The notes under the pieces: model-generated
Seen by the model: only the letters and a program-made list of their open reading frames with translations
Databases searched by the model: none
Told to the model about the DNA's origin: nothing
Assembly (NCBI GenBank): GCA_048571215.1
Contig: CP182352.1
Location: forward strand, 2,816,001 to 2,880,000
Direction of reading: 5' to 3'
Length of the DNA stretch: 64,000 nucleotides
Origin: Halarcobacter sp.
GTDB taxonomy: Bacteria > Campylobacterota > Campylobacteria > Campylobacterales > Arcobacteraceae
Program-made: the position numbers and the translations under genes
Shown: piece by piece, positions 5,332-16,084 of the stretch
Numbering within the stretch: the first letter of the stretch is position 1
How the letters are laid out: each line of letters opens with the position of its first letter

Positions 5332-5350
5332 TAATAAATTTGCAAAATAA

Positions 5351-5389
5351 AAAAGGGTTTGAAGTTTAGACTTCAAGCCCTTTTTTTTT
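5351..5389 (+). terminator. Intrinsic terminator of the thrS-rplT operon; marks the left edge of the accessory island
   Basis: GGGTTTGAAGT-ttag-ACTTCAAGCCC followed by T9. Confidence 0.9.
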
Positions 5390-5420: not shown

Positions 5421-6020
5421 CTCAAATAGTTTTAGATAATTTCAATTGTATGCAGTTGTCTTGTAGAGCGAGGCTCTCCGCTTTCATACTTTTTAATTGT
5501 AAAAAGTATGGCAAAAAGCAACCAGACGGTTCTTGAAGCTAAAGTTCCCTCCAGTTTTATAATTATTTCCTGACCTGCGGGACTTGATATAAAACGTGAC
5601 ATTTAGTCACCTTTTATATCTTCGAACAAGTCCTCGGTCTTCTCCGAAAATAATTAGAAAACTTCCGGCTTCAACAAAGTCTGGACTAAATATACTAGCC
5701 ACAAACTTCCTAATTTAAATTTAACATAACACCAGTTTAAATAAAATGGTACAAAAAAATGTAAAGGTCCTTATCCCACTTTCCCGCATTTGAGAAACCG
5801 AGTGTTTATTTATCTCTTTTGAAAACAAGTGACTAAACTGTTTGAAGCGTAAAGAAACGTTCTGGGAGAACGTTTTAGCAAGTTTTTAGGCACTCAAAAG
5901 GGATAAGTAATAAGCGAGGGAACCTTCGGCTTCGAAACCCGCGGGATAATTTCTTTGCTACTTTCTTTTTTACAAAAGAAAGTTGAGAAAGCCAAGACGT
6001 ACAGTAGAAATTTAACTACA
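5421..6020. repeat. Structured non-coding ~600-bp repeat, copy 1 (module A about 5480-5684, module B about 5771-5992)
   Basis: Aligns to copy 2 at a 600-bp offset (CTTTCATACTTTTTAATTGTAAAAAGTATG at 5481 and 6081); long nested inverted repeats; no credible ORF. Confidence 0.92.
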
Positions 6021-6636
6021 CTCAAATATATTGATAATAGTTTTTATTGTCTGCAATTGTCTTGAAGAACAAGTTCTTCGCTTTCATACTTTTTAATTGT
6101 AAAAAGTATGACAAAAAGCAACCAGACGGTTGTCGAAGCTAAAGTTCCCTTCAGTTTTATAATTATTTCCTGACCTGCGGAACGCCTTCCTAAAAGGTAC
6201 ATTCAGTACCTTTTATCCAGTTGAACGGTCCTCGGTCTTCTCCGAAAATAATTAGAAAACTTCCGGCTTCAACAAAGTCTGGACTAAATACACTAGCCAC
6301 GAACTTTCTTTTGCAAATTGAGTATTACACCAATCAAAATAAAATGGTAGTAAAAATGCAAAGGTCCTTATCCCCACCTTCCCGCATTTGAGAAGCCGAG
6401 CGTTTATTTTGCTTTTCGGAAAAGTTTTTCAACTGTCAGAGCGTAAAAAAACGTAACTAACTTACGTTTTAGCGAGTTTTGAAAAACAGAAAAGTGAAAT
6501 AATAAGCGAGGGTAGTTTCACCTTTGAAACCTGTGGGATAATTTCTTTGCTACTTTCTTTTTTATAAAAGAAAGTCGAGAAAGCCAAGACGTGCAGTAAA
6601 AGTTTATTTATACTCAAATATATTGATAATAGTTTT
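6021..6636. repeat. Structured non-coding ~600-bp repeat, copy 2 (plus start of a further unit)
   Basis: Tandem with copy 1; same flanking motifs, diverged apical stems that still pair. Confidence 0.92.
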
Positions 6637-6901
6637 AACCCTACATACAACATAATATATTTATCATTTTGTTAAACTATCAAAATTTTCATCCAATAGT
6701 CATACAAAATGATATGCTATTAAGGATATACCTTAATAATCTAACATAAAAAATGTTCTACTTTTTCTTATATTATTTTGTATTTCACTAAATTTAGACT
6801 ATTTAAGGCTTATTTGAGTTAATATTTTTACATTTTAATTGTTAAGATATTAGATGTTTTTATACATTATTTATATATAATGTATAACTAATAAGTAGTT
6901 A
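6637..6901 (+). promoter_or_regulatory. Conserved cassette-array leader 1 (candidate Pc promoter region)
   Basis: Homologous to 12468-12718; contains ATTTAAGGCTTATTTGAGTTAATAT (resembles the thrS upstream ATTTAAG-N11-TAAAAT) and an inverted repeat TATACATTA/TAATGTATA with a TATAAT. Confidence 0.55.
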
Positions 6902-6904
6902 GTC
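6885..6904 (+). other. attI-like integron recombination site 1
   Basis: TAACTA-ataag-TAGTTA inverted pair ending in G|TTAGTC; homology with leader 2 stops right after GTTA, where cassette DNA begins. Confidence 0.65.
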
Positions 6905-6928
6905 GAAAAATTAAAATAAGGAAGTCCT

Positions 6929-7981
6929 GTGAATTTATATGACTATTTGTATGTTGATTTAGATAAAGCAATTTCATTGTACAGTCAGCTCACGGGAGGC
7001 GTTGTTGAGCTTAAGGAAACTCAATCTGAGAAAAGCATCACCTCAGACAACAAAAGAAATTACGATTTCAAAGTGTTTAAACATGATGCAGGTGGAACCA
7101 CTCAAGACAAAGATCAAGACAAAACAACAATCAAGCCTCATCATGCTCTGCTGCAAGAATTGGAAGCAGAATTATTGTCGTCAGGTTATCTCTTGGACTT
7201 AGACGGTCTTGATGGAGACAAAACCCTTAAAGACCTAGAGCTAAGAGCAACATTGAAAAATGCATTATGTATCAAATGCACAGGGTGAATTGTCATTGAA
7301 GACTATGAAAGAATGAAGAAAATTGGTAAAGACTTTCCTGATATCGTGAAACTTATCAATAGGAGTCATGCCGATTCATTAAAAGACAATCCTGAGTATC
7401 AGGCAATTGAACAGCAGATAGAAGAGCTTGAAAATACGACAGGTGATAGAAATAAGAAATCTAAGGCAAAACAAAAAGCAAAAGAATTAAGAGAAGTACT
7501 AGATAATTTAGTTTCCTCATCGACAGCGCTAGATGCTGTACCTCAGTGGATACTGGACGGGATGAGAACATGGATTGATGCTTTCTTGCCCAATATTACC
7601 AATATTCGAGTCTATCCCTTCAAAGATCAAAATGATGAGCATATCTTTGGGCATTTAGACTCAGAAAACTTCACAATTAATGACCCAACTGCGTTCCATT
7701 TCACATACGGGTCCTTTCCAACAGAAGAGTTTACCATACTTGGAATCGTAACCTCAGTACCACTGAATGAGGAGGAAAGCTTCTCCCCATTGGAAGAATT
7801 TGAAAAAGATGAACTAGAAGATTTCGAAAGTGTTGAAAGTGCTTTTCGCGGTATGTTTAGAGGGTTTGACGGTATGGAGGCAATGGTGAGAACTTGTCGA
7901 TATCCAAGAGTGTTAGTGCATCCAATTTTAGTTTATCGTCACACATCACCTAACAAAGCATTGCAGCGGACAAGCCGCTGA
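6929..7981 (+). pseudogene. Cassette 1 gene, hypothetical (possibly DUF6414-like), split by one in-frame TGA at 7286-7288
   Basis: ORFs 6929..7288 and 7313..7981 share a frame and read KCTG*IVIEDYERM across the stop; visibly more GC-rich than the host. Confidence 0.75.
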
Positions 7982-7995
7982 ATGCGGCGTTAGAT
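7948..7995 (+). other. attC site of cassette 1
   Basis: R'' ACCTAAC ... GCATT-g-CAGCGG-acaag-CCGCTG-AATGC ... R' GTTAGAT, with an extra-helical G in L''. Confidence 0.85.
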
Positions 7996-8017
7996 AAACA
8001 TAATAAGGAATATTAAA

Positions 8018-9859
8018 TTGAGCATAGAATTTTTAAAAACAGATTATGAAAAAATAGATTATTTAAGTAATTTATTAAAATCTCGTGCCACAGGAAAGGA
8101 AGCTTCTGATAGTGAATACAAAGCACTAAGAGATGAACTATTATTGAATAGAAAATTAGAACAATATTTTCCTATATGGTTGAAAACCAATGGAGATTTA
8201 AATTCATTTTGGAGATTTATAAAAGAAAAGTTTAAAACATATGATGAAAGAACTAAATTTTTATCTGATGAATTTCTACCTTTGTTAAATTATCTAATGC
8301 CAACAGAATTAAAGCCGGTATCAATTCCAAAAGATATTTTACCATTAGGTCAAGATACTTTAAAACAAAAACTTAATGAATATCTAAAAATACATAATGA
8401 AATAATCAATATATATGGGAATTTTATATTATCTACAAAAGTTTTAGGGAATGGTGGAACTTCTGTTGTTAAAGGATTTAATTTTAGTGGTAAAGAATAT
8501 GCTATTAAATTTTTACTTGAAAATATAAAACAAAAAGAAAGCACAACATTTAAACGATTTAAACAATCTCATTTAAATTTATTGTCCATTCAACATTCAG
8601 GAGTGGTATTACCACAAATACATTTTGATAGCATAAAGATTAATAATGAAACTCAAATCCCATATATAATAATGCCAAAAGCAGAAACTACTTTAAAAGT
8701 TTTTGTGGATGAGAAAAAAAGAAATGATGAATTTAACTTTATATTCTTTGAAAAATTATTTGATAATTTAATAAATATAGTTGATATAATTCATAGCCAT
8801 AATATTATACATAGGGATATAAAACCTGAGAATCTTTTTATTTTGGATGGAAGATTAGTTTTGGGTGATTTTGACATTGCTAAATTTAACGATAATCATC
8901 ACATTAAGCTTGTAGATACAAAAAAAGCCGATAGAATGGCAAATTTTTACTATTCTGCACCAGAACAATCAATAAAAAAATTTGATGAAATTACATTTTC
9001 TGCTGATTGGTATGCAATAGGACAAGTATTGTATTGGCTAATAACTGGCGATACATTAAGAGGTCAAGAGAATATATCTTTGGTTCAATATGATAAACAA
9101 TATGAAAAATACGAAACATTAATAAGAAATTTATTGTCTAATGAACCAAGCCATAGATTAAGTTCAAAAAAAGATATTAAAGAATTTTTAAATAGCAAAA
9201 AACAAATTAGATGGGAAGACACCTTACATAATTTTGATGATATTATTGTTTATAAGTATATGTCTGATTTTGGAGTTTCAAGACAAGGTTTTAAAGAATT
9301 TAACGATGTAGAATCCATTCTTGAAATAATGACTGATTTATCTAATAATACTGATAAATTAGCACTTTGGATAAGTCAAGGTTATTCAGACAGAGATGTT
9401 AAGTATATTTCAAAAAATAAAGACTGCGATGCTTGTTTTTTAATTGACTATTTAGAAATAAAAATTAAAACTATTTGGATATATAAACATTTTAATAGTT
9501 TTGGTGGTAGTACAATTATTATTGAAACAGACAACTATGAAGCTATTAACACAGATGCTAACAATATTGACTATTATGGTCTTTTTGATGGTAATATTAT
9601 AAAACCTGAAGAAGTTGATAGTGGCTGGGCAATAATAAATGGAAAAAGAACTAAACTTGATAAAACAGCAGAAGTGAGGGGAAGAGTTTTAAATAAAACT
9701 ATCTATTTTTTAGCACCATTTAAAGGTCCATTAGTTAAAAATGCTAAAATAATTGATAACTTATATAAATCTTACAATGAGGAAATTGGTCTAAATGAAG
9801 ATTTTTTAGCACCTCTTAAATCAATAAAAAGGAATGATGATATTATGATGATGTCATAA
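8018..9859 (+). CDS. Cassette 2 gene: Ser/Thr protein kinase with an N-terminal abortive-infection-like domain
   Basis: LGNGGTSVV, YAIKFL, HRDIKPEN, DFD (in place of DFG), YSAPEQ, DWYAIG; N-terminus FWRFIKEKFKTYDERTKFL resembles Abi-protein N-terminal domains. Confidence 0.85.
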   Translation: MSIEFLKTDYEKIDYLSNLLKSRATGKEASDSEYKALRDELLLNRKLEQYFPIWLKTNGDLNSFWRFIKEKFKTYDERTKFLSDEFLPLLNYLMPTELKPVSIPKDILPLGQDTLKQKLNEYLKIHNEIINIYGNFILSTKVLGNGGTSVVKGFNFSGKEYAIKFLLENIKQKESTTFKRFKQSHLNLLSIQHSGVVLPQIHFDSIKINNETQIPYIIMPKAETTLKVFVDEKKRNDEFNFIFFEKLFDNLINIVDIIHSHNIIHRDIKPENLFILDGRLVLGDFDIAKFNDNHHIKLVDTKKADRMANFYYSAPEQSIKKFDEITFSADWYAIGQVLYWLITGDTLRGQENISLVQYDKQYEKYETLIRNLLSNEPSHRLSSKKDIKEFLNSKKQIRWEDTLHNFDDIIVYKYMSDFGVSRQGFKEFNDVESILEIMTDLSNNTDKLALWISQGYSDRDVKYISKNKDCDACFLIDYLEIKIKTIWIYKHFNSFGGSTIIIETDNYEAINTDANNIDYYGLFDGNIIKPEEVDSGWAIINGKRTKLDKTAEVRGRVLNKTIYFLAPFKGPLVKNAKIIDNLYKSYNEEIGLNEDFLAPLKSIKRNDDIMMMS

Positions 9860-9864
9860 TGATT

Positions 9865-9877
9865 ATCTAACAAAACC
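9865..9877 (+). other. Truncated attC of cassette 2 (R'' box only)
   Basis: ATCTAAC is the exact reverse complement of the cassette's first bases GTTAGAT (7989-7995); followed by AAAAC as in attC3, then IS sequence. Confidence 0.7.
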
Positions 9878-9879
9878 TA

Positions 9880-10200
9880 CAGACTGTGAATTTAGTCCCA
9901 AATAAACTAAATTTACAGTAAAAATTCAAATTAACTTCCTAAATATCTGATATTTTTTCTTAAAATTTTTTGATATAAAAATTTTTGTAAAAAATAAACC
10001 AAATAAAGTCCAAACACTAAGATATATTCCTCTATATCTTTGGTAATTTGGGTTAAATCTTTATTTTTTATGGCTAAGCATAACTTTTGAAACAGATTTA
10101 TCCCTATAAGATTTAAAAGTCTTCTAAAATTATATGTAAACATAATAAGAGCATTTTCACCAAGTACTTTTTCTTTAGAACGAACTAAAAAATAATCCCA
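9880..10200 (-). mobile_element. IS1182-family remnant (transposase C-terminus plus element end)
   Basis: Minus strand reads WDYFLVRSKEKVLGENALIMFTYNFRRLLNLIG, like IS1182 DDE C-termini; ends in CACAGTCTG with a hairpin ACTGTGAATTTAGT/ACTAAATTTACAGT. Confidence 0.7.
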
Positions 10201-10244
10201 TATAACGCCCCATAGAATGAATTTCCACTTTTATAATAATTGTT

Positions 10245-10474
10245 AAGTATCACACCGATTCAAATAAAATGGTATCAAAAAATGCAAAGGTCAATTTCCT
10301 ACCTTTCCGCATTTGAGAAGCCGAGCGTTTATTTATCTCTTTTGAAAACAAGTGACTAAACTGTTTGAAGCCTAAAGAAACGTTCTGGGAGAACGTTTTA
10401 GCAAGTTTTTAGGCACTCAAAAGGGATGAATAATAAGCGAGAGTAGTTTCACCTTCGAAACCTGTGGGATGGTT
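10245..10474. repeat. Structured repeat copy 3, module B left part (interrupted by IS110)
   Basis: Matches 5730-5950 and 6325-6540; stops at CCTGTGGGATGGTT. Confidence 0.88.
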
Positions 10475-10514
10475 CGTATAATAAAATATTGGAAATATGA
10501 TAGTATATTTTCAT

Positions 10515-10716
10515 AGAGTTCAATAGAAGATGATATATTGTGTGGGTGGTTGAAGCAATTAAAAATAATTTTAATTAGCTTGTAAAGAAGTTCAATAGTT
10601 ATACTTCAAATTTGAGTGGCAACAAGAACAGTTTTATAACTAGTTCGTATTTACGAGTCTAAAGTTTGTATGACGAAATATCAGGTAGGAATTTTATTCC
10701 TACCCTAACGAACTCT
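10515..10716 (+). ncRNA. Putative IS110 bridge RNA
   Basis: Enclosed by AGAGTTC/GAACTCT; two internal loops carry GGGTGGTT + GTAAAGAA (target) and GTGGCAAC + TACGAGT (donor); TATAAT at 10477-10482. Confidence 0.7.
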
Positions 10717-10741
10717 TTATATTAATACAAAGGTTCTAGAT

Positions 10742-11725
10742 ATGTATTCTATCGGATTAGATATAAGTAAGTCAACAATTAATATTTATATCCCTATCAA
10801 TGATTTAGATATTCAAATATCAAATAATTTGAAATCACTTAAAGGTTTTTATTCTAAGTTAAAAAAACTTTATAAAAAAGATATAGATAAACTTGTATTT
10901 GTTTTTGAACCTACAGCTAATTATTCCTTTTTAATTAAAAAGTTTTGTTCTGAAAAAAGTATACACTGTTTTATTGTTAATCCAAAGAAAAGTGCTAACT
11001 TTGCTAAAGCAATTGGTCAAAGAAATAAAACTGACCTTTTAGATGCTAGAATGTTATCTCAGATGATAGTTACTGCAAGAAAAAATCAGATTAAAATACC
11101 CATTATTAATCCTTATGCCGAGGAATTAAAAGAGCTTATTACATATTATAAATTTATATCAAAAATTAAAACTCAAAATAAAAATCATTTGGAAGCTTTA
11201 GTTTCAAAAGATGCTTCATCTATTATAATTAAATCATTAAGAAAAGATATAAAATCATTTGAAAAAAAAGAAAAAGATATTCTTATTGAGATAAAAAAAG
11301 TTATTGCAAAAGACAAAAATTTACATAATGCATTTTTAAATATCCAAACTATAAAAGGCATAGGAGAATTATCTTCAATTATATTATTACACCATTTTAT
11401 ACAATATCCTGATACAAATCAAAAGCAAATTGTTTCATTAGCTGGATTAGATCCAGTTAGTAGAGATTCTGGTTCATCAATAAAAGGAAAAACAAAAATA
11501 TCAAAATCTGGTTCAAAATTATGTAGGGGTACATTATTTATGGCAGTAATGACAGCGATACAATACAATGAAGAATTAAAAATATTTTATAATAGATTAA
11601 AAGAGAATGGCAAACATACTACTGTAGCACAAATTGCTGTAATGCGAAAAATGATTGTAATTGCTCACTCATTATATAAAAATAATAATATATATGACCC
11701 TAATAAATTTAAAAGTATATCATAA
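10742..11725 (+). CDS. IS110-family transposase/recombinase
   Basis: IGLDISK, VFEPTANY, KTDLLDARML (RuvC-like DEDD) and IKGIG, AGLDPVSRDSGSS (Tnp domain serine). Confidence 0.95.
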   Translation: MYSIGLDISKSTINIYIPINDLDIQISNNLKSLKGFYSKLKKLYKKDIDKLVFVFEPTANYSFLIKKFCSEKSIHCFIVNPKKSANFAKAIGQRNKTDLLDARMLSQMIVTARKNQIKIPIINPYAEELKELITYYKFISKIKTQNKNHLEALVSKDASSIIIKSLRKDIKSFEKKEKDILIEIKKVIAKDKNLHNAFLNIQTIKGIGELSSIILLHHFIQYPDTNQKQIVSLAGLDPVSRDSGSSIKGKTKISKSGSKLCRGTLFMAVMTAIQYNEELKIFYNRLKENGKHTTVAQIAVMRKMIVIAHSLYKNNNIYDPNKFKSIS

Positions 11726-11773
11726 ATATTAGATTTAAATATTTTATATTTTATCATTTTTTAAGGTGGCAAC

Positions 11774-11843
11774 TTCTTTGCTACTTTCTTTTTCAGAAAA
11801 GAAAGTCGAGAAAGCTAAGAGGTACAATAAAAGTTTATTCACA
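11774..11843. repeat. Structured repeat copy 3, right end of module B
   Basis: TTCTTTGCTACTTTCTTTTTCAGAAAAGAAAGTCGAGAAAGC continues the sequence broken at 10474. Confidence 0.88.
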
Positions 11844-12467
11844 TTCAAATATTTTGAAAATAGTTTTAATTGTATACACCCTCTTGTAGAGCAAAGCTCT
11901 CCGCTTTCTCACTTTTTAGTTGTAAAAAGTAAGACAAAAAGCAACCAGACGGTTGTCGAAGCTAAAGTCCCCTACAGCTTTCTAATTATTTCCTGACCTG
12001 CGGAACGCCTTCCTAAAAGGTACATTCAGTACCTTTTATCCAGTTGAACGGTCCTCGGTCTTTTCCGAAAATAATTAAAAACCTTCCGGCTTCAACAAAG
12101 TCTGGACTAAATACACTAGCCACAAACTTCCTAATTTAAATTTAACATAACACCAGTTTAAATAAAATGGTACAAAAAAATGCAAAGGTCAGTTTCCCAC
12201 CTTCCCGCATTTGAGAAGCCGAGTGTTTATTTATCTCTTTTGAAAACAAGTGACTAAACTGTCTGAAGCGTAAAAAAATGTGCTGGGAGCACATTTTAGC
12301 AAGTTTTTAGGCACTCAAAAGGGATGAATGAAAAGCTCGGGGAGCTTCTGCCTTCGAAACCTGCAGGATGGTTTCTTTGCTACTTTCTTTTTCAGAAAAG
12401 AAAGTCGAGAAAGCCAAGAGGTACAGCAAAAGTTTATTTACACCTAAATATATTGATAATAGTTTTA
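11844..12467. repeat. Structured non-coding ~600-bp repeat, copy 4 (complete)
   Basis: Full A+B unit homologous to copies 1 and 2, followed by the same tail as copy 2. Confidence 0.92.
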
Positions 12468-12718
12468 GCCAATCACAATATAATATATTTATCATTTTGT
12501 TAAACTATCAAAATTTTCACCAAATAGTCATACAAAATGATAGGATATTACGGATATACGTTAATAATCTAACATATAAAAGTACATATTTATTTACTTT
12601 ATTTTATATTTTATTGAATTTTGACTATTTAAGGCTTATTTGAGTTAATATCTTTATGTTAAGATATTAGATGTTTTTATACATTATTTATATATAATAT
12701 ATTACTAGTAAGTAGTTA
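12468..12718 (+). promoter_or_regulatory. Conserved cassette-array leader 2
   Basis: Homologous to 6637-6901 (e.g. TAATATATTTATCATTTTGTTAAACTATCAAAATTTTCA, GTTAAGATATTAGATGTTTTTATACATTATTTATATATAAT). Confidence 0.55.
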
Positions 12719-12721
12719 TGT
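12702..12721 (+). other. attI-like integron recombination site 2
   Basis: TTACTA-gtaag-TAGTTA ending in G|TTATGT, which is the exact reverse complement of R'' ACATAAC of the next attC. Confidence 0.65.
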
Positions 12722-12737
12722 TCAGAGGAGATAAATT

Positions 12738-13100
12738 TTGTTAGAAGTCATAATATTTGCATTAATAATAATCATTTTGGGTGTACTCCCAAGTATTTGG
12801 TACCTTAAAAGGAAAGAAAAACCTGCTGAAGTTAATCAAAAACCGAATATTATAATAGTAATTTTAGGTTCGATACTTTTAATTGTAAATACATATTTTA
12901 CATATATTTTGAATAAAGGCTCTATAGCATATGTTTTTGGTGCGGTATATTTTATTCCAATTGTTTTAATCCTAATTTTCAATGAAAATTGGAATAAAAG
13001 ATGGAAAATTATACTGTTTACACAGTTTATAATTTTCTTAAGTGTTTTGGGTAATTTGATGTCAGTAGCTCAAGAAGTTGCTAAAACTCAAGGAACATAA
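12738..13100 (+). CDS. Cassette 3 gene: small multi-pass membrane protein
   Basis: GAGGAG RBS, TTG start, about four hydrophobic segments, stop codon lies inside the attC R'' box. Confidence 0.8.
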   Translation: MLEVIIFALIIIILGVLPSIWYLKRKEKPAEVNQKPNIIIVILGSILLIVNTYFTYILNKGSIAYVFGAVYFIPIVLILIFNENWNKRWKIILFTQFIIFLSVLGNLMSVAQEVAKTQGT

Positions 13101-13163
13101 CAAAACATTGGAGAGAAATATTTGACCCTGCGGCTCAAATATTTCTCAACTCAAACGTTATAC
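13095..13163 (+). other. attC site of cassette 3
   Basis: R'' ACATAAC ... GAGAAATATTTGA-ccctgcggc-TCAAATATTTCTC ... R' GTTATAC. Confidence 0.85.
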
Positions 13164-13239: not shown

Positions 13240-14346
13240 TTATTTCACACTATTTATTGAAATTTTTACAACCACAGTTGTTCCAATATTTTCTTGACTT
13301 TCATAGTGAATTGTTGCTCCCAAAAGTTCTAAAATTCTTTTTACGATGGAAAGTCCAAGACCACTTCCTTGTTTTTTATGGGATTCATCACCTTGGTAAA
13401 ACTTATCAAAAATCTTTGCAATTTTTTCACTCTTAATCCCAATACCTTCATCTTTAATCTTAACAATAAGTTCATTTCCATTTACGTATTCATCGATATA
13501 AATTGTACTATTGTTAGAAGAGTATTTCATGGCGTTATCAATGAGATTCATCCAAACATGCATCAAAAGTGATTTATCCGATTCTACAACTACATCGCAG
13601 AGGTTTAAATCAAATTTTTGATCATGATCACTCCACTTTTGGGACAGTACTATCACTGCACGCCTTATTTGTTCATCTACTCGGATCATATCTTTTTTTG
13701 AGATAATTTGTTGATTATCTAAGCGTGACATTTGGAGCATATCTTCACAAAGTAATGACAAGCGTCTAGATTCTTGATGTATGAGTTCCAAATACTCTTT
13801 TTGCTTTTGCATTTCAAGTGGCGTATCTAATAACAATTCAGCAAAACCTGTGATTGCCGTAACAGGTGTTTTTATTTCATGTGATACATTACTCATAAAA
13901 TCTTTACGCATATAATCCATACCAGAGAGTTCTTCTACCATTTTATTTACATTTGAAGAGAGTTCATCAAGTTCATGGGCATAAAGATGATTTTTCATCT
14001 CTCTTTTTTTACGATAAACTCTTGCAGTAAAATCCCCTTGGGCAATTTTATTCACAGTTAAATTTAAAGCTTCAACAGGTTTCAATAAATGCCCTGAACC
14101 AATGTATAAGGCAATACCACCAATAATCATCGTTAAAGCACAAACCAGTAGACTCATAATGATCCCTGATAACATAGTAATTGGTCCGTGATAAAATAAC
14201 CAAGTCCCAGTAATAACTATACCACACGCAATAAGACAAGCAACGAATAAGGTGGCAATAGAAACAAAAGAGATAAAAGAGCGAAGGCGTATTATATATT
14301 TCTTTTTCATGGTTTCCTTTTTTAATTTTATGGCATTACTTTTCAT
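13240..14346 (-). CDS. HAMP-domain sensor histidine kinase (HssS-like)
   Basis: Two TM helices, HAMP, SNVSHEIKTP H-box, NLIDNAMKY, DEGIGI, GSGLGL; true start may be the downstream MKKKY. Confidence 0.9.
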   Translation of the reverse strand: MKSNAIKLKKETMKKKYIIRLRSFISFVSIATLFVACLIACGIVITGTWLFYHGPITMLSGIIMSLLVCALTMIIGGIALYIGSGHLLKPVEALNLTVNKIAQGDFTARVYRKKREMKNHLYAHELDELSSNVNKMVEELSGMDYMRKDFMSNVSHEIKTPVTAITGFAELLLDTPLEMQKQKEYLELIHQESRRLSLLCEDMLQMSRLDNQQIISKKDMIRVDEQIRRAVIVLSQKWSDHDQKFDLNLCDVVVESDKSLLMHVWMNLIDNAMKYSSNNSTIYIDEYVNGNELIVKIKDEGIGIKSEKIAKIFDKFYQGDESHKKQGSGLGLSIVKRILELLGATIHYESQENIGTTVVVKISINSVK

Positions 14347-15032
14347 TTGGTATTATCTGTTAAATGATATTTTGCCTTATACCCAAGCCCTCTTATAGTC
14401 ATAATCTCAAAATCCTGACATGATTCAAATCTACGACGAAGTTTTTTGATATGAGAATCAACAGTTCGTTCATCTGCTTCTGATTCTACACCCCAAATTT
14501 CATTCATAATTTCATATCTAGTAAAAATTCTATTGGGATAGCTGAGTAAAAGAAATAGTAGATAAAACTCTTTAGGGGGAAGATCGTATTCTTTAGAGTC
14601 AATATTTATTTTTAATGCCTTGTAGTCTAGAAAACTCTTTCCTATAACTAATCTATTTTCATTAGCTATTTTTGCTCTTCGTAAAAGTGCATTTACTCTA
14701 AGAACCATCTCTTTTAGTTGAATAGGTTTAACCATATAATCATCTGTTCCAAGTCTAAATCCCTTTTCAATATCTTCCATTTGATTTTTTGCCGTAATCA
14801 TCAAAATAGGAAAAGAAGGTTCCATCTTTCTAATCTCTTGTATAAGTTCATAGCCATTTATTTTTGGCATCATAATATCTGAGATGACTAAATCAACATA
14901 TGTTGTATCCATGATTTCTAAGGCTTCTTCTCCATCAAATGCCGAAATAGTCTTGAAGTTTTCTTGTTTTAATTTCGTACATATCATCTTATTTAATGTC
15001 TCATCATCTTCAGCAACTAATATAGAAAACAT
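14343..15032 (-). CDS. OmpR-family response regulator (HssR-like)
   Basis: AEDD, DIMMP, GTDDYMVKP, LPPKEFYLL, DERTVDSHIKKLR, TIRGLGY. Confidence 0.93.
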   Translation of the reverse strand: MFSILVAEDDETLNKMICTKLKQENFKTISAFDGEEALEIMDTTYVDLVISDIMMPKINGYELIQEIRKMEPSFPILMITAKNQMEDIEKGFRLGTDDYMVKPIQLKEMVLRVNALLRRAKIANENRLVIGKSFLDYKALKINIDSKEYDLPPKEFYLLFLLLSYPNRIFTRYEIMNEIWGVESEADERTVDSHIKKLRRRFESCQDFEIMTIRGLGYKAKYHLTDNTK

Positions 15033-15135
15033 CTTTTTACCTCGTATCTAAGATATTACTTTTGGAAAATTATATCACAGTTCTTTCTCTTAAGACAAAC
15101 CATATCTTTGTCTGGCATAGTACTATAGTTTATAA

Positions 15136-15447
15136 TTACATCCACTCAAAATGGATAAAGAGTTCAGGATACCCCTCAATTGGAAACCAATAAGAGATAA
15201 TTTCTTTTTCCGTATATTCTGCATTTTTGTATGCCACTTGCTGCAAATGTAATGCTCTATTAGCCAAACAACCCCTATATTCTTCATTTGTACTTAAAGT
15301 AGAGTAATTCATTCCCTTCACAATTCCAAGCACTTCAGACAATGCATTTACAGCAATTACTTCTTTGTTTTTATGTACCAGTGTTACAGGCTCAGGAAAA
15401 TTTCCCCACATCAGATGAAAAGCCTCAATTATTTTTGAATCAACCAT
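15136..15447 (-). CDS. Hypothetical protein (possible PAS-like small domain)
   Basis: AAGGAAGGA RBS, 103 aa, AFHLMWGNFPEPVTLV. Confidence 0.7.
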   Translation of the reverse strand: MVDSKIIEAFHLMWGNFPEPVTLVHKNKEVIAVNALSEVLGIVKGMNYSTLSTNEEYRGCLANRALHLQQVAYKNAEYTEKEIISYWFPIEGYPELFIHFEWM

Positions 15448-15492
15448 AATTAGATATCCTTCCTTAAATATATTTCAAAAAGATCTCTTACA

Positions 15493-15651
15493 CTATTTAA
15501 CCAAAAATGTTACGGCACATAAAATAACTGCACTTGCTCCCATAATTAAATGGCATTTTCTAAGCCATGTTGCTTTTGAACCAAAAAACATGTAAGCTCC
15601 TGTAATTCCTGCTATTGCAATTGTTAAACGAAATAATAAATCTAGTATCAT
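15493..15651 (-). CDS. Small two-helix membrane protein (52 aa), absent from the ORF track
   Basis: AAGGAG RBS then MILDLLFRLTIAIAGITGAYMFFGSKATWLRKCHLIMGASAVILCAVTFLVK*. Confidence 0.65.
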   Translation of the reverse strand: MILDLLFRLTIAIAGITGAYMFFGSKATWLRKCHLIMGASAVILCAVTFLVK

Positions 15652-16084
15652 TTCTTCTCCTTTTATTTATTATGTCAATAGAATAATAATAACCTTCATT
15701 CACTTATCCATCTGAAAGTTCATTTCCTTTTGACAATAGGAATTATACATTTCGAATATGGTCTGAATGTGTCCAAAATAAAGAATTCTATGATTTTGTA
15801 CTTTTATGAAATATAGATTGTGTATGAGTGTACTGTTTTACCCGTTAGAGCTCTTCTAAAAATCCCTACCTCCTTTACAATTCCTATCGTATAAATAAAG
15901 ACAAGTTTCTTTATCTTTCTCTTTCTAAATTCTTTATATGTAAAAGATTTATTGCTTAATTTCGTTAAAATATTCTTATATCTATATGATATAATAAAAC
16001 CTAGAGAGTTTAAAAAGTTAATACATTGCGAAGAATTAAAAGCCGCAGATTTTTCTTTCTACATAAAAGAAAATCAAAAGAAAT

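Follow-up and report, generated by a model that had tools for sequence, protein, structure and literature searches.

The window, a 64,000-nt stretch of the Halarcobacter sp. contig CP182352.1 (positions 2,816,001–2,880,000), carries two modules in which a structured repeat is followed by a leader, an attI site and gene cassettes. We consider it probable that these are two of about 22 integrase-less promoter–attI platforms, served in trans and copied by recombination at the repeats. Coordinates are those of the window unless prefixed with C1 (contig).

Two modules downstream of rplT

The intrinsic terminator of rplT (5349–5386, plus strand) forms the left edge of a 10.8-kb stretch that most relatives lack; at the locus downstream of rplT, 11 of 20 relatives in the genus carry no inserted gene. 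Module 1 opens with repeat halves in the order A-B-A-B (5441–6635). A1 (5441–5707, minus strand) has a rod-hairpin core at 5486–5675 on the minus strand (R1, 171 bits), and B1 (5725–6044, plus strand) consists of a linker, a rod core at about 5792–5985 on the plus strand and a tail. A2 (6042–6305, minus strand; core 6086–6273, fold z −6.7) and B2 (6321–6635, plus strand) follow. Leader 1 (6636–6898, plus strand) corresponds to an intI–attI intergenic region without intI and ends in attI, with the crossover at G6898|TT (full GTTAGTC). Cassette 1 (6899–7989, plus strand) carries a DUF6414 gene broken by an in-frame stop at 7286 and a 48-bp attC (7948–7995); its GC content is 38.6%, compared with 28.5% for the genome. 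Cassette 2 (7990 to approximately 9879, plus strand) encodes a 613-aa Ser/Thr kinase. Its R'' ATCTAAC (9865–9871) is complementary to its own 5' GTTAGAT, and the right arm of its attC is missing: a remnant of an IS1182-family element (9880–10199, minus strand) sits within this attC and cuts it at 9880.

Module 2 has a sharp 5' end at a terminal inverted repeat (TIR) of a TIRtron, an HUH Y1 transposon (10200–10232, plus strand). The left portion of B3 (10246–10474, plus strand) is separated from the rest by an intact IS110 element (10475–11770, plus strand; transposase 10742–11725, NF033542) that interrupts the module. The remainder of B3, A3 (core 11909–12096, minus strand) and B4 occupy 11771–12466 (plus strand). 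Leader 2 with its attI (12467–12715, plus strand; crossover G12715|TT, full GTTATGT) is 86% identical to leader 1. Cassette 3 (12716–13163, plus strand) contains a 120-aa ORF, for which searches of Pfam and NCBIfam gave no match, and an attC (13095–13163) whose R'' ACATAAC is complementary to GTTATGT. With two complete attC and an interrupted one between 7948 and 13163, and intI not nearby, the region falls among the CALINs (at least two attC).

The two-module layout and the end of the homology between the modules at GTTA, both described in the initial annotation, were confirmed. Its account of the module content was right as to repeats, leader and cassettes; the intact IS110 in module 2 and the IS1182 remnant at the second attC had been overlooked. 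The assembly is supported by a sediment-metagenome run, possibly related to the source of the DNA, which covers 6856–9909 with 0 differences and shows a fourfold depth over IS110 (227 vs 57).

Leaders and the integrase

Judged by homology, the leader is the intI–attI intergenic region of Arcobacteraceae integrons. Leader 1 is homologous over its full length to the native regions upstream of intI at four loci (L039, L047, L048, L052). An attI profile made from the orphan copies matches upstream of intI at 15 of 30 native loci, and a whole-leader profile gives a strong match at 4 of the 30. The site that had been called attI-like is a true attI, related by homology to native sites next to intI as in a complete integron; intI beside attI, the other mark of a complete integron, is absent from the window modules. 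At seven orphan loci the first ~12 codons of intI (MxKKLLDIMxxK) are retained (0 matches in the shuffled control), with an identical breakpoint beneath different leaders, and the 34 regions searched contained no remaining parts of the gene. Homology shows each leader to be this region of an Arcobacteraceae-type integron that lost intI at or just past the start codon. One alignment hinted that the B tail of the window modules is a degenerate 5' end of intI, a candidate rejected because 28 tails did not score above shuffles (z −0.3 to 2.6). A promoter scan was at chance level (7 vs 6.1).

The genome has eight matches to tyrosine recombinases, all outside the window, as the initial annotation had stated for the window. 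The integrase it had postulated in trans exists: the only intact intI lies at about C1:895245–896189, 1.9 Mb from the window. Recognition of attI by the cognate integrase only has been reported (PMC2095811, part of the source), and some leader types may therefore lie beyond the reach of the resident IntI.

The leaders fall into several types with a mutual likeness of 58–77%, which means that some may be independent dead integrons and not copies. Several types match different native integrons, and the identity between one of them and the resident native leader is 87%. In a rival reading, many complete integrons were acquired separately and each lost intI by deletion at a repeat, leaving frozen CALINs with no present activity or copying. 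It agrees with these matches and with the remains of intI, stubs or pseudogenes that differ in length, at 14 of the 66 sites sampled in relatives, and intI loss has been proposed as an origin of CALINs (PMC4889954, part of the source). We regard it as very unlikely, since it would not account for near-identical copies of repeat plus leader (six at five loci, 85–97% identical, and three at three loci), for one 12-codon breakpoint under different leaders or for the cassette turnover at orthologous orphan sites described below. The six copies at five loci go part of the way towards showing copying between loci; under the platform reading that we prefer, fusions of leader and rod repeat would have been copied between chromosomal sites.

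Orphan attI sites and their cassettes

The architecture had been described as duplicated just once; instead, we found 30 repeat arrays and 23 attI-like sites in the genome, about 22 of the latter without an integrase beside them. At 17 of the 23, attI lies 207–341 bp downstream of the B half of a repeat on the same strand, a placement that covers 0.7% of positions by chance. Twenty-two sites were used to compare the crossover 7-mer with the R'' of the first cassette, 8 of which were unscorable. At 12 of the 14 scorable sites the 7-mer is complementary to the R'' that the first cassette itself carries (permutation mean 2.3; 0 of 10000), as expected of attC cassettes inserted at G|TT. Window cassettes 2 and 3 show such insertion; at window cassette 1 the crossover agrees at just one of three variable bases. 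The first cassette differs at five of the seven orthologous orphan sites common to this genome and its closest relative (G147). It also differs among three species at the carA locus and, at one locus, among four. The use of orphan attI sites for cassette capture is well supported by the agreement of crossover and attC at these 12 sites. This sequence signature is that of ordinary attI x attC recombination, by which an IntI acting in trans would place cassettes into the orphan attI. Most of the sites already carry different captured genes, and the integron thus seems to operate through a network of many sites and not at a single locus.

On the sequence level nothing spoke against the link between repeat and leader drawn in the initial annotation: it holds for 17 of 23 attI here and 9 of 15 in G147, and different cassettes follow the leader at orthologous sites. 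An obligatory unit of repeat and attI is not supported: the repeat occurs alone elsewhere, and of the 66 attI sites sampled in relatives just 8 have it upstream. The attI motif is present in 85 of 150 sampled genomes of the family and intI in 45. Sites of attI without a complete intI, mostly lacking this repeat, occur family-wide; three genomes (G056, G099, G115) have modules and no intI match.

Orphan attI without a repeat, being common in the family, would suit a process in which IntI spreads its own attI. Recombination of attI x attI, or of attC x attI in chains, would excise promoter–attI circles, and these would insert again at an attC, an attI or a secondary site, with the repeat as a mere passenger. 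A leader–attI closely follows an attC at L134, at L154 and, inside the native array, at C1:899415–899720, and attI x attI recombination by integron integrases is known (PMC4792948, part of the source). This process leaves unexplained the repeat adjoining 17 of the 23 sites and the TIR junctions that stand in place of attC at array tails, and we find it highly improbable. Among the contigs of four read runs, no joint assignable to a module circle was found.

The rod repeat

The structured 600-bp repeat of the initial annotation is present, its unit being in reality a mosaic in which a covarying rod hairpin occurs twice, as the inverted homologues A and B. Their homology gives a local score of 83, against a maximum of 56 in 200 shuffles, and HMM cross-matches on the opposite strand. 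The rod core comprises 188 positions and a terminal hairpin. It has no Rfam match at the gathering score, and known RNA families were rejected for want of a match. Beyond the family, neither BLAST (0 of 285) nor a covariance model (0 of 143) gave a match within the phylum; the restriction to the family that these negatives suggested was overturned by a pattern scan, which found the core across phyla, there between housekeeping genes. One genome (G003) has 15 copies of the repeat alone and 0 matches to the attI pattern.

Alternating inverted palindromic units, intergenic position and multiple copies are shared with REP/BIME elements, whose 20–40-bp unit with a GTAG/CGTC tag the repeat lacks (the tag was not seen by eye in alignments). 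The core lies beside 1 of 30 RAYT-like loci and 0 of 26 in a second, overlapping set of loci, and transposases account for 0 of 52 neighbours of the repeat in other phyla. A RAYT-like gene at C1:2560378 was rejected as the cognate enzyme, being frameshifted and flanked by neither the repeat nor the module TIR. The repeat is not an attC-type site, as its stem ends are GTT...AAC, opposite to attC, and variable; nor does it come from coding or downstream DNA of intI, of which nothing matched besides the 5' stub. Carriage by a plasmid or phage was likewise dismissed (no match), and no reverse transcriptase was found in the genome. The pieces listed for an RNA run fell mostly on IS110 and on one B start (91% alike), and we base no statement on expression on them. 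Soil and wastewater runs in which the share was small yielded pieces of the repeat and leader only and are not taken as a sign of habitat.

The initial annotation had suggested that the repeat might act in replication, expression or mobilisation. The first two are unsupported; for mobilisation we infer a role, as we do for the copying step of the modules. The repeat may itself be a selfish element of the REP/BIME kind, one that enhances spread without being required for it. Its dispersed copies of 300–600 bp would supply the homology by which a block of repeat, leader, attI and cassettes is copied or inserted at other repeats, and homologous recombination of this kind would produce chains of modules.

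Terminal inverted repeats and insertion sequences

The genome contains 25 copies of the TIR, of which 12 head a B linker and 13 are without a repeat. All but one of the 12 lie 1.2–4.8 kb downstream of another attI on the same strand. The motif stands inverted on both sides of the five closest TIRYT genes (5/5), and the 28-bp TIR core of one of these loci (L381) is identical to the genome's motif. In relatives, a Y1 transposase between inverted TIRs was found only at L379–L381, L402 and L404, whereas a module here has a single TIR and lacks the transposase. This genome has no intact transposase of the module TIR type, only stubs: a TIR at C1:548408 adjoins a 37-codon stub (78% identical). The gene of this type matches NF047646 below the cut-off.

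The modules could be read as a non-autonomous HUH transposon, in which a TIRtron transposase directly moves TIR, rod repeat and promoter–attI by one-ended single-strand transposition; the TIR would be its fixed end, and the cassettes would travel as open-ended, ISCR-like cargo. The sharp 5' ends at the TIR fit this, lying inside an attC (C1:1711888), inside an intI stub (C1:1717848) and against the IS1182 remnant of the window. The TIR faces the repeat as it faces its own transposase, the cassettes have no partner TIR behind them, and a TIRYT gene of another subfamily (L228) lies ~100 bp from a rod core. Yet many arrays, window module 1 among them, start with A and without a TIR; 13 of the 25 TIRs have no repeat; the cognate TIRYT search found a core or attI at 0 of 26 loci; and the genome retains the cognate transposase as stubs only. 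We consider this transposon unlikely. Slightly less doubtful is the broader idea that TIRtron ends, the cross-phylum rod repeat and promoter–attI were fused into a non-autonomous element that plants sites of capture and expression by HUH single-strand transposition, giving ~20 docking sites for a single integrase. Within the platform reading, a TIRtron transposase that is now not intact may have made the sharp joints between a new module and the tail of the previous array; the TIR could also mark later insertions into arrays and not their cause.

The four copies of IS110 are identical, and every one sits at the same position of B. The non-coding left end of the element holds sequences matching its target, and putative bridge-RNA target loops of two IS110 elements match two different repeat sites. 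The sequence GTTGCCACCTT beside TIRs, tried as a TIR, is actually the right end of IS110. The IS1182 remnant belongs to the same element as C1:632055–632428, where an ORF matches NF033551, and this end occurs in six copies in the genome.

Discussion

In a standard integron one attI lies beside intI, and expression is limited to a few cassettes near one promoter. About 22 promoter–attI copies would provide many first positions simultaneously. The analysis also delimits a previously uncatalogued structured repeat found across phyla. MITE-flanked integrons or integron mobilisation units and ISCR elements resemble the modules in that parts of integrons are moved by elements which are non-coding or one-ended; what they move is class 1 integrons with intI, or resistance arrays. 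The present modules are without intI and without a flanking MITE pair, and a search for Y2 transposases (PF04986), run without a positive control, gave no match in the genome. The literature that we searched, mostly outside subscription journals and supplements, describes neither multiple orphan attI sites nor the rod repeat.

The motif heading modules corresponds to the inverted terminal repeat of Y1 HUH transposase genes in TIRtrons (Di Nocera 2013, PMC3733652; Quentin 2018, PMC6006769), where solo and clustered TIRs are known; the parts of these two papers available to us describe no link of TIRs to attI platforms. The module TIR differs in deviating from GGGGWSAS and in having no intact cognate gene in the genome. 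The lists of TIRs that accompany both papers, in figures and supplements, may be relevant to it.

With REP, BIME and REPIN sequences, as described in parts of PMC2817692 and PMC3733652, the rod repeat shares intergenic palindromic units of alternating orientation, tandem arrays and patchy presence. It also shares targeting by IS110 elements: IS621, a member of that group, targets REPs (PMC11208160, part of the source). The unit here is ~190 nt and not 20–40, no cognate RAYT was found, and the repeat is fused to an integron leader.

Integrons and CALINs, as treated by Cury et al. (2016, PMC4889954), are likewise among the closest known systems. According to the parts of that paper available to us, they have in common with the modules IntI, attI, attC cassettes and arrays distant from intI, with use in trans proposed; CALINs are defined there by attC alone, attI is sought for classes 1–3 only, the attI of most integrons is unknown, and the origin of CALINs is left open. 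Arrays that keep and copy attI, invisible to IntegronFinder outside classes 1–3, would give CALINs a testable origin. Compared with CALINs so defined, the arrays described here retain the region upstream of intI together with attI, number about 22 in one chromosome, bear the signature of insertion at attI and are linked to a repeat.

Results

The studied genome (G000) is a single contig (C1) of 3.61 Mb with 28.5% GC. The two modules of the window, at 5441-~9879 and 10200-13163, are part of a stretch of 10.8 kb between rplT and a rhodanese-like gene. Both have the architecture given in the initial annotation (repeat array, leader ending in attI, cassettes), which had overlooked an IS110 copy in module 2, an IS1182 remnant interrupting the second attC and a stop codon in cassette 1. 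One metagenome run reproduces window positions 6856-9909 with 0 differences. Among 20 relatives, fetched out of 24 in the genus, the rplT site has no inserted gene in 11, other inserted genes in eight and a rearrangement in one; the repeat is present there in three of the 20, and the attI pattern in none of them. A two-component pair and short ORFs lie behind cassette 3 (window 13240-16000), still in the rplT stretch that most relatives lack. An IS1182-family element is repeatedly inserted at an identical position in attC left arms (window 9880-10199 and five other loci).

The sole intact intI of the genome lies at C1:895245-896189 (398 bits against a cut-off of 265), so that the IntI acting in trans that had been postulated for the window has a candidate gene. 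The DNA upstream of this gene ends in a homologue of the leader's final part. Of 30 native intI loci in the family Arcobacteraceae, 15 are matched by an attI profile derived from the orphan copies (sites with no complete intI beside them). The whole-leader profile has strong matches at four of the 30, which begin 4-12 bases from the intI start codon, and in pairwise alignments distinct orphan leader types match distinct native integrons. At seven orphan loci the first ~12 codons of intI survive (0 hits in shuffled controls); a search of 34 regions gave no further part of the gene, and the window's two leaders carry no significant intI stub. Judged by these homologies, the leader is the control region of an integron.

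Profile and pattern searches combined give 23 attI-like sites in the genome. Seventeen of them lie 207-341 bp downstream of a same-strand B half of the repeat, a condition met by 0.7% of genome positions, and an attI stands behind 17 of the 30 repeat arrays. Modules are chained in the window and at C1:957-971k, 1464-1473k, 1711-1722k and 1803-1808k. The closest relative (G147) has a B half upstream of 9/15 attI matches. Six leaders form a group of 85-97% identity, three others one of 88-90% and two one of 97%; between leader types identity is 58-77%, and one orphan leader is 87% identical to the native one. The repeat-linked copies were probably duplicated between loci. Two more attI-like sites, both with degenerate crossovers, are located within the native cassette array or directly after it (C1:899720 and 904735).

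The 600-bp repeat unit consists of two inverted homologues, A and B, whose common core is predicted to fold, with z of -6.7 and -4.0, as a long rod with a terminal hairpin. Both sides have changed in 31 of 48 pairs across 18 sequences (0/500 shuffles equal this; slid controls give 11-18), a figure biased in favour of the structure because the latter was drawn from the same, related sequences. BLAST finds the repeat in 58/150 family genomes, and a core motif scan of species genomes gives at least 122 stretches. The family-built covariance model of the core was applied to 30 loci that had been preselected for a shared motif; 12 of them give matches at E<=0.001 (best 1.3e-10), frequently as inverted pairs. 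Rfam has no match for the repeat, and 52 ORFs neighbouring the core in other genomes include one phage integrase and no transposase. Members of the repeat family that includes the rod core are seen in Ralstonia, Pasteurellaceae and Methylotenera, where inverted pairs between housekeeping genes are frequent (among the listed loci L257-L378). Records from Bacteroidota, Bacillota and Deltaproteobacteria likewise contain the core pattern, with little or no backing from the model. No mobilising gene for the cross-phylum repeat was found among the neighbours.

All full-length IS110 copies of the genome (7/7) are inside the repeat, with copies at window 10475-11770 and at C1:383490-384773, 424830-426113 and 969537-970820. 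The two IS110 types have a non-coding scaffold in common except for two short segments. In these, each type matches a target of its own, which lies in B for one type and at the GCGAGTT motif conserved in A for the other (by eye, unscored). This pattern looks like bridge-RNA retargeting within one repeat family.

Arrays whose first half is B start with a 33-bp motif. The five closest members of one Y1 HUH transposase subfamily each stand between two inverted copies of it, so the motif is a TIRtron terminal repeat, an element of a kind described in PMC3733652 and PMC6006769. Its 28-bp core is identical in locus L381; none of ten more distant subfamily members examined has an inverted motif pair. 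Twelve of the 25 motif copies in the genome stand at the start of a B linker. Eleven of the twelve follow another attI at a distance of 1.2-4.8 kb, where the cassette array of that attI ends. Of the cognate transposase the genome holds stubs only. In our best reading, homologous recombination at the repeats would spread the modules and the TIRtron would make their sharp junctions; direct HUH transposition of modules and spread driven by IntI both rank behind it. At C1:808000-812000 and 2554000-2561000, arrays of short genes that resemble RHS C-terminal/immunity pairs are interspersed with TIRtron terminal repeats of two kinds; a frameshifted TIRYT (transposase) gene lies beside them.

As is well established for integrons, when a cassette is inserted by attI x attC recombination, the bases behind the crossover are expected to complement the R'' box of its own attC. 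We examined 22 sites, of which 14 could be scored at three variable bases. All three match at 12 of the 14 (permutation mean 2.3; 0/10000), the two misses being C1:1472890 and the native site, whose first cassette (C1:896496-896675) has no ORF. In the window, the match to the flanking sites is perfect for cassettes 2 and 3 and covers one of the three variable bases for cassette 1. Chimeric sites after cassette insertion are described in PMC4889954. As had been anticipated, the cassettes behind the leader vary: by eye, the first cassette differs between the genome and its closest relative at 5/7 orthologous orphan sites (one of the two unchanged sites has a degenerate crossover), the carA site has three different first cassettes in three genomes (G000, G147, G056), and a site without the repeat in the studied genome has four in four relatives (G099, G083, G115, G138). 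At the level of sequence comparison, these differences show turnover between species and are not evidence of present-day activity. The orphan sites are very probably attI sites that IntI has loaded, and they may well still function with the resident IntI. A reading of the modules as frozen independent relics stands, too, behind that of repeat recombination with TIRtron junctions.

Across the family, the attI pattern matches 85/150 genomes, several with 3-15 copies (reversed control 0-1), against 45/150 with an intI match, mostly one each. We fetched 60 loci with 66 sites, a non-random choice among the matches listed; 114 further matches were outside that list. The rod repeat lies just upstream of eight of the 66, one of them a fragment, and intI stubs or pseudogenes are present at 14; the remaining sites include some behind other repeats or an attC. 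This makes orphan promoter-attI regions a trait of the family. Repeat and attI had been proposed to form one unit. Such a unit is not obligatory, as its presence at only eight of the 66 sites and the solo repeats of one relative (G003; 15 copies, no attI pattern match) indicate. The largest orphan-attI expansions observed, in the studied genome and its closest relative, go with fusion to the rod repeat. Genus g18 (L139, L173, L190, L192, L193) shows a parallel fusion: ahead of an orphan attI, intI stubs that end near codon 15 adjoin a structured repeat of another kind. One repeat type occurs beside integron leaders (L140, L185, L192) and intI 3' ends, downstream of native intI in L041, L044, L054 and L061; we take it to be ERIC-like.

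Discussion

Every single part of this system is of a known kind. What appears new is the dispersed, repeat-linked, multi-attI arrangement, of which our literature search found no description. The CALINs of Xanthomonas (attC arrays without intI; bioRxiv 10.1101/2025.06.18.660453) likewise occupy several loci, but no attI copies are described for them in the parts of that source available to us.
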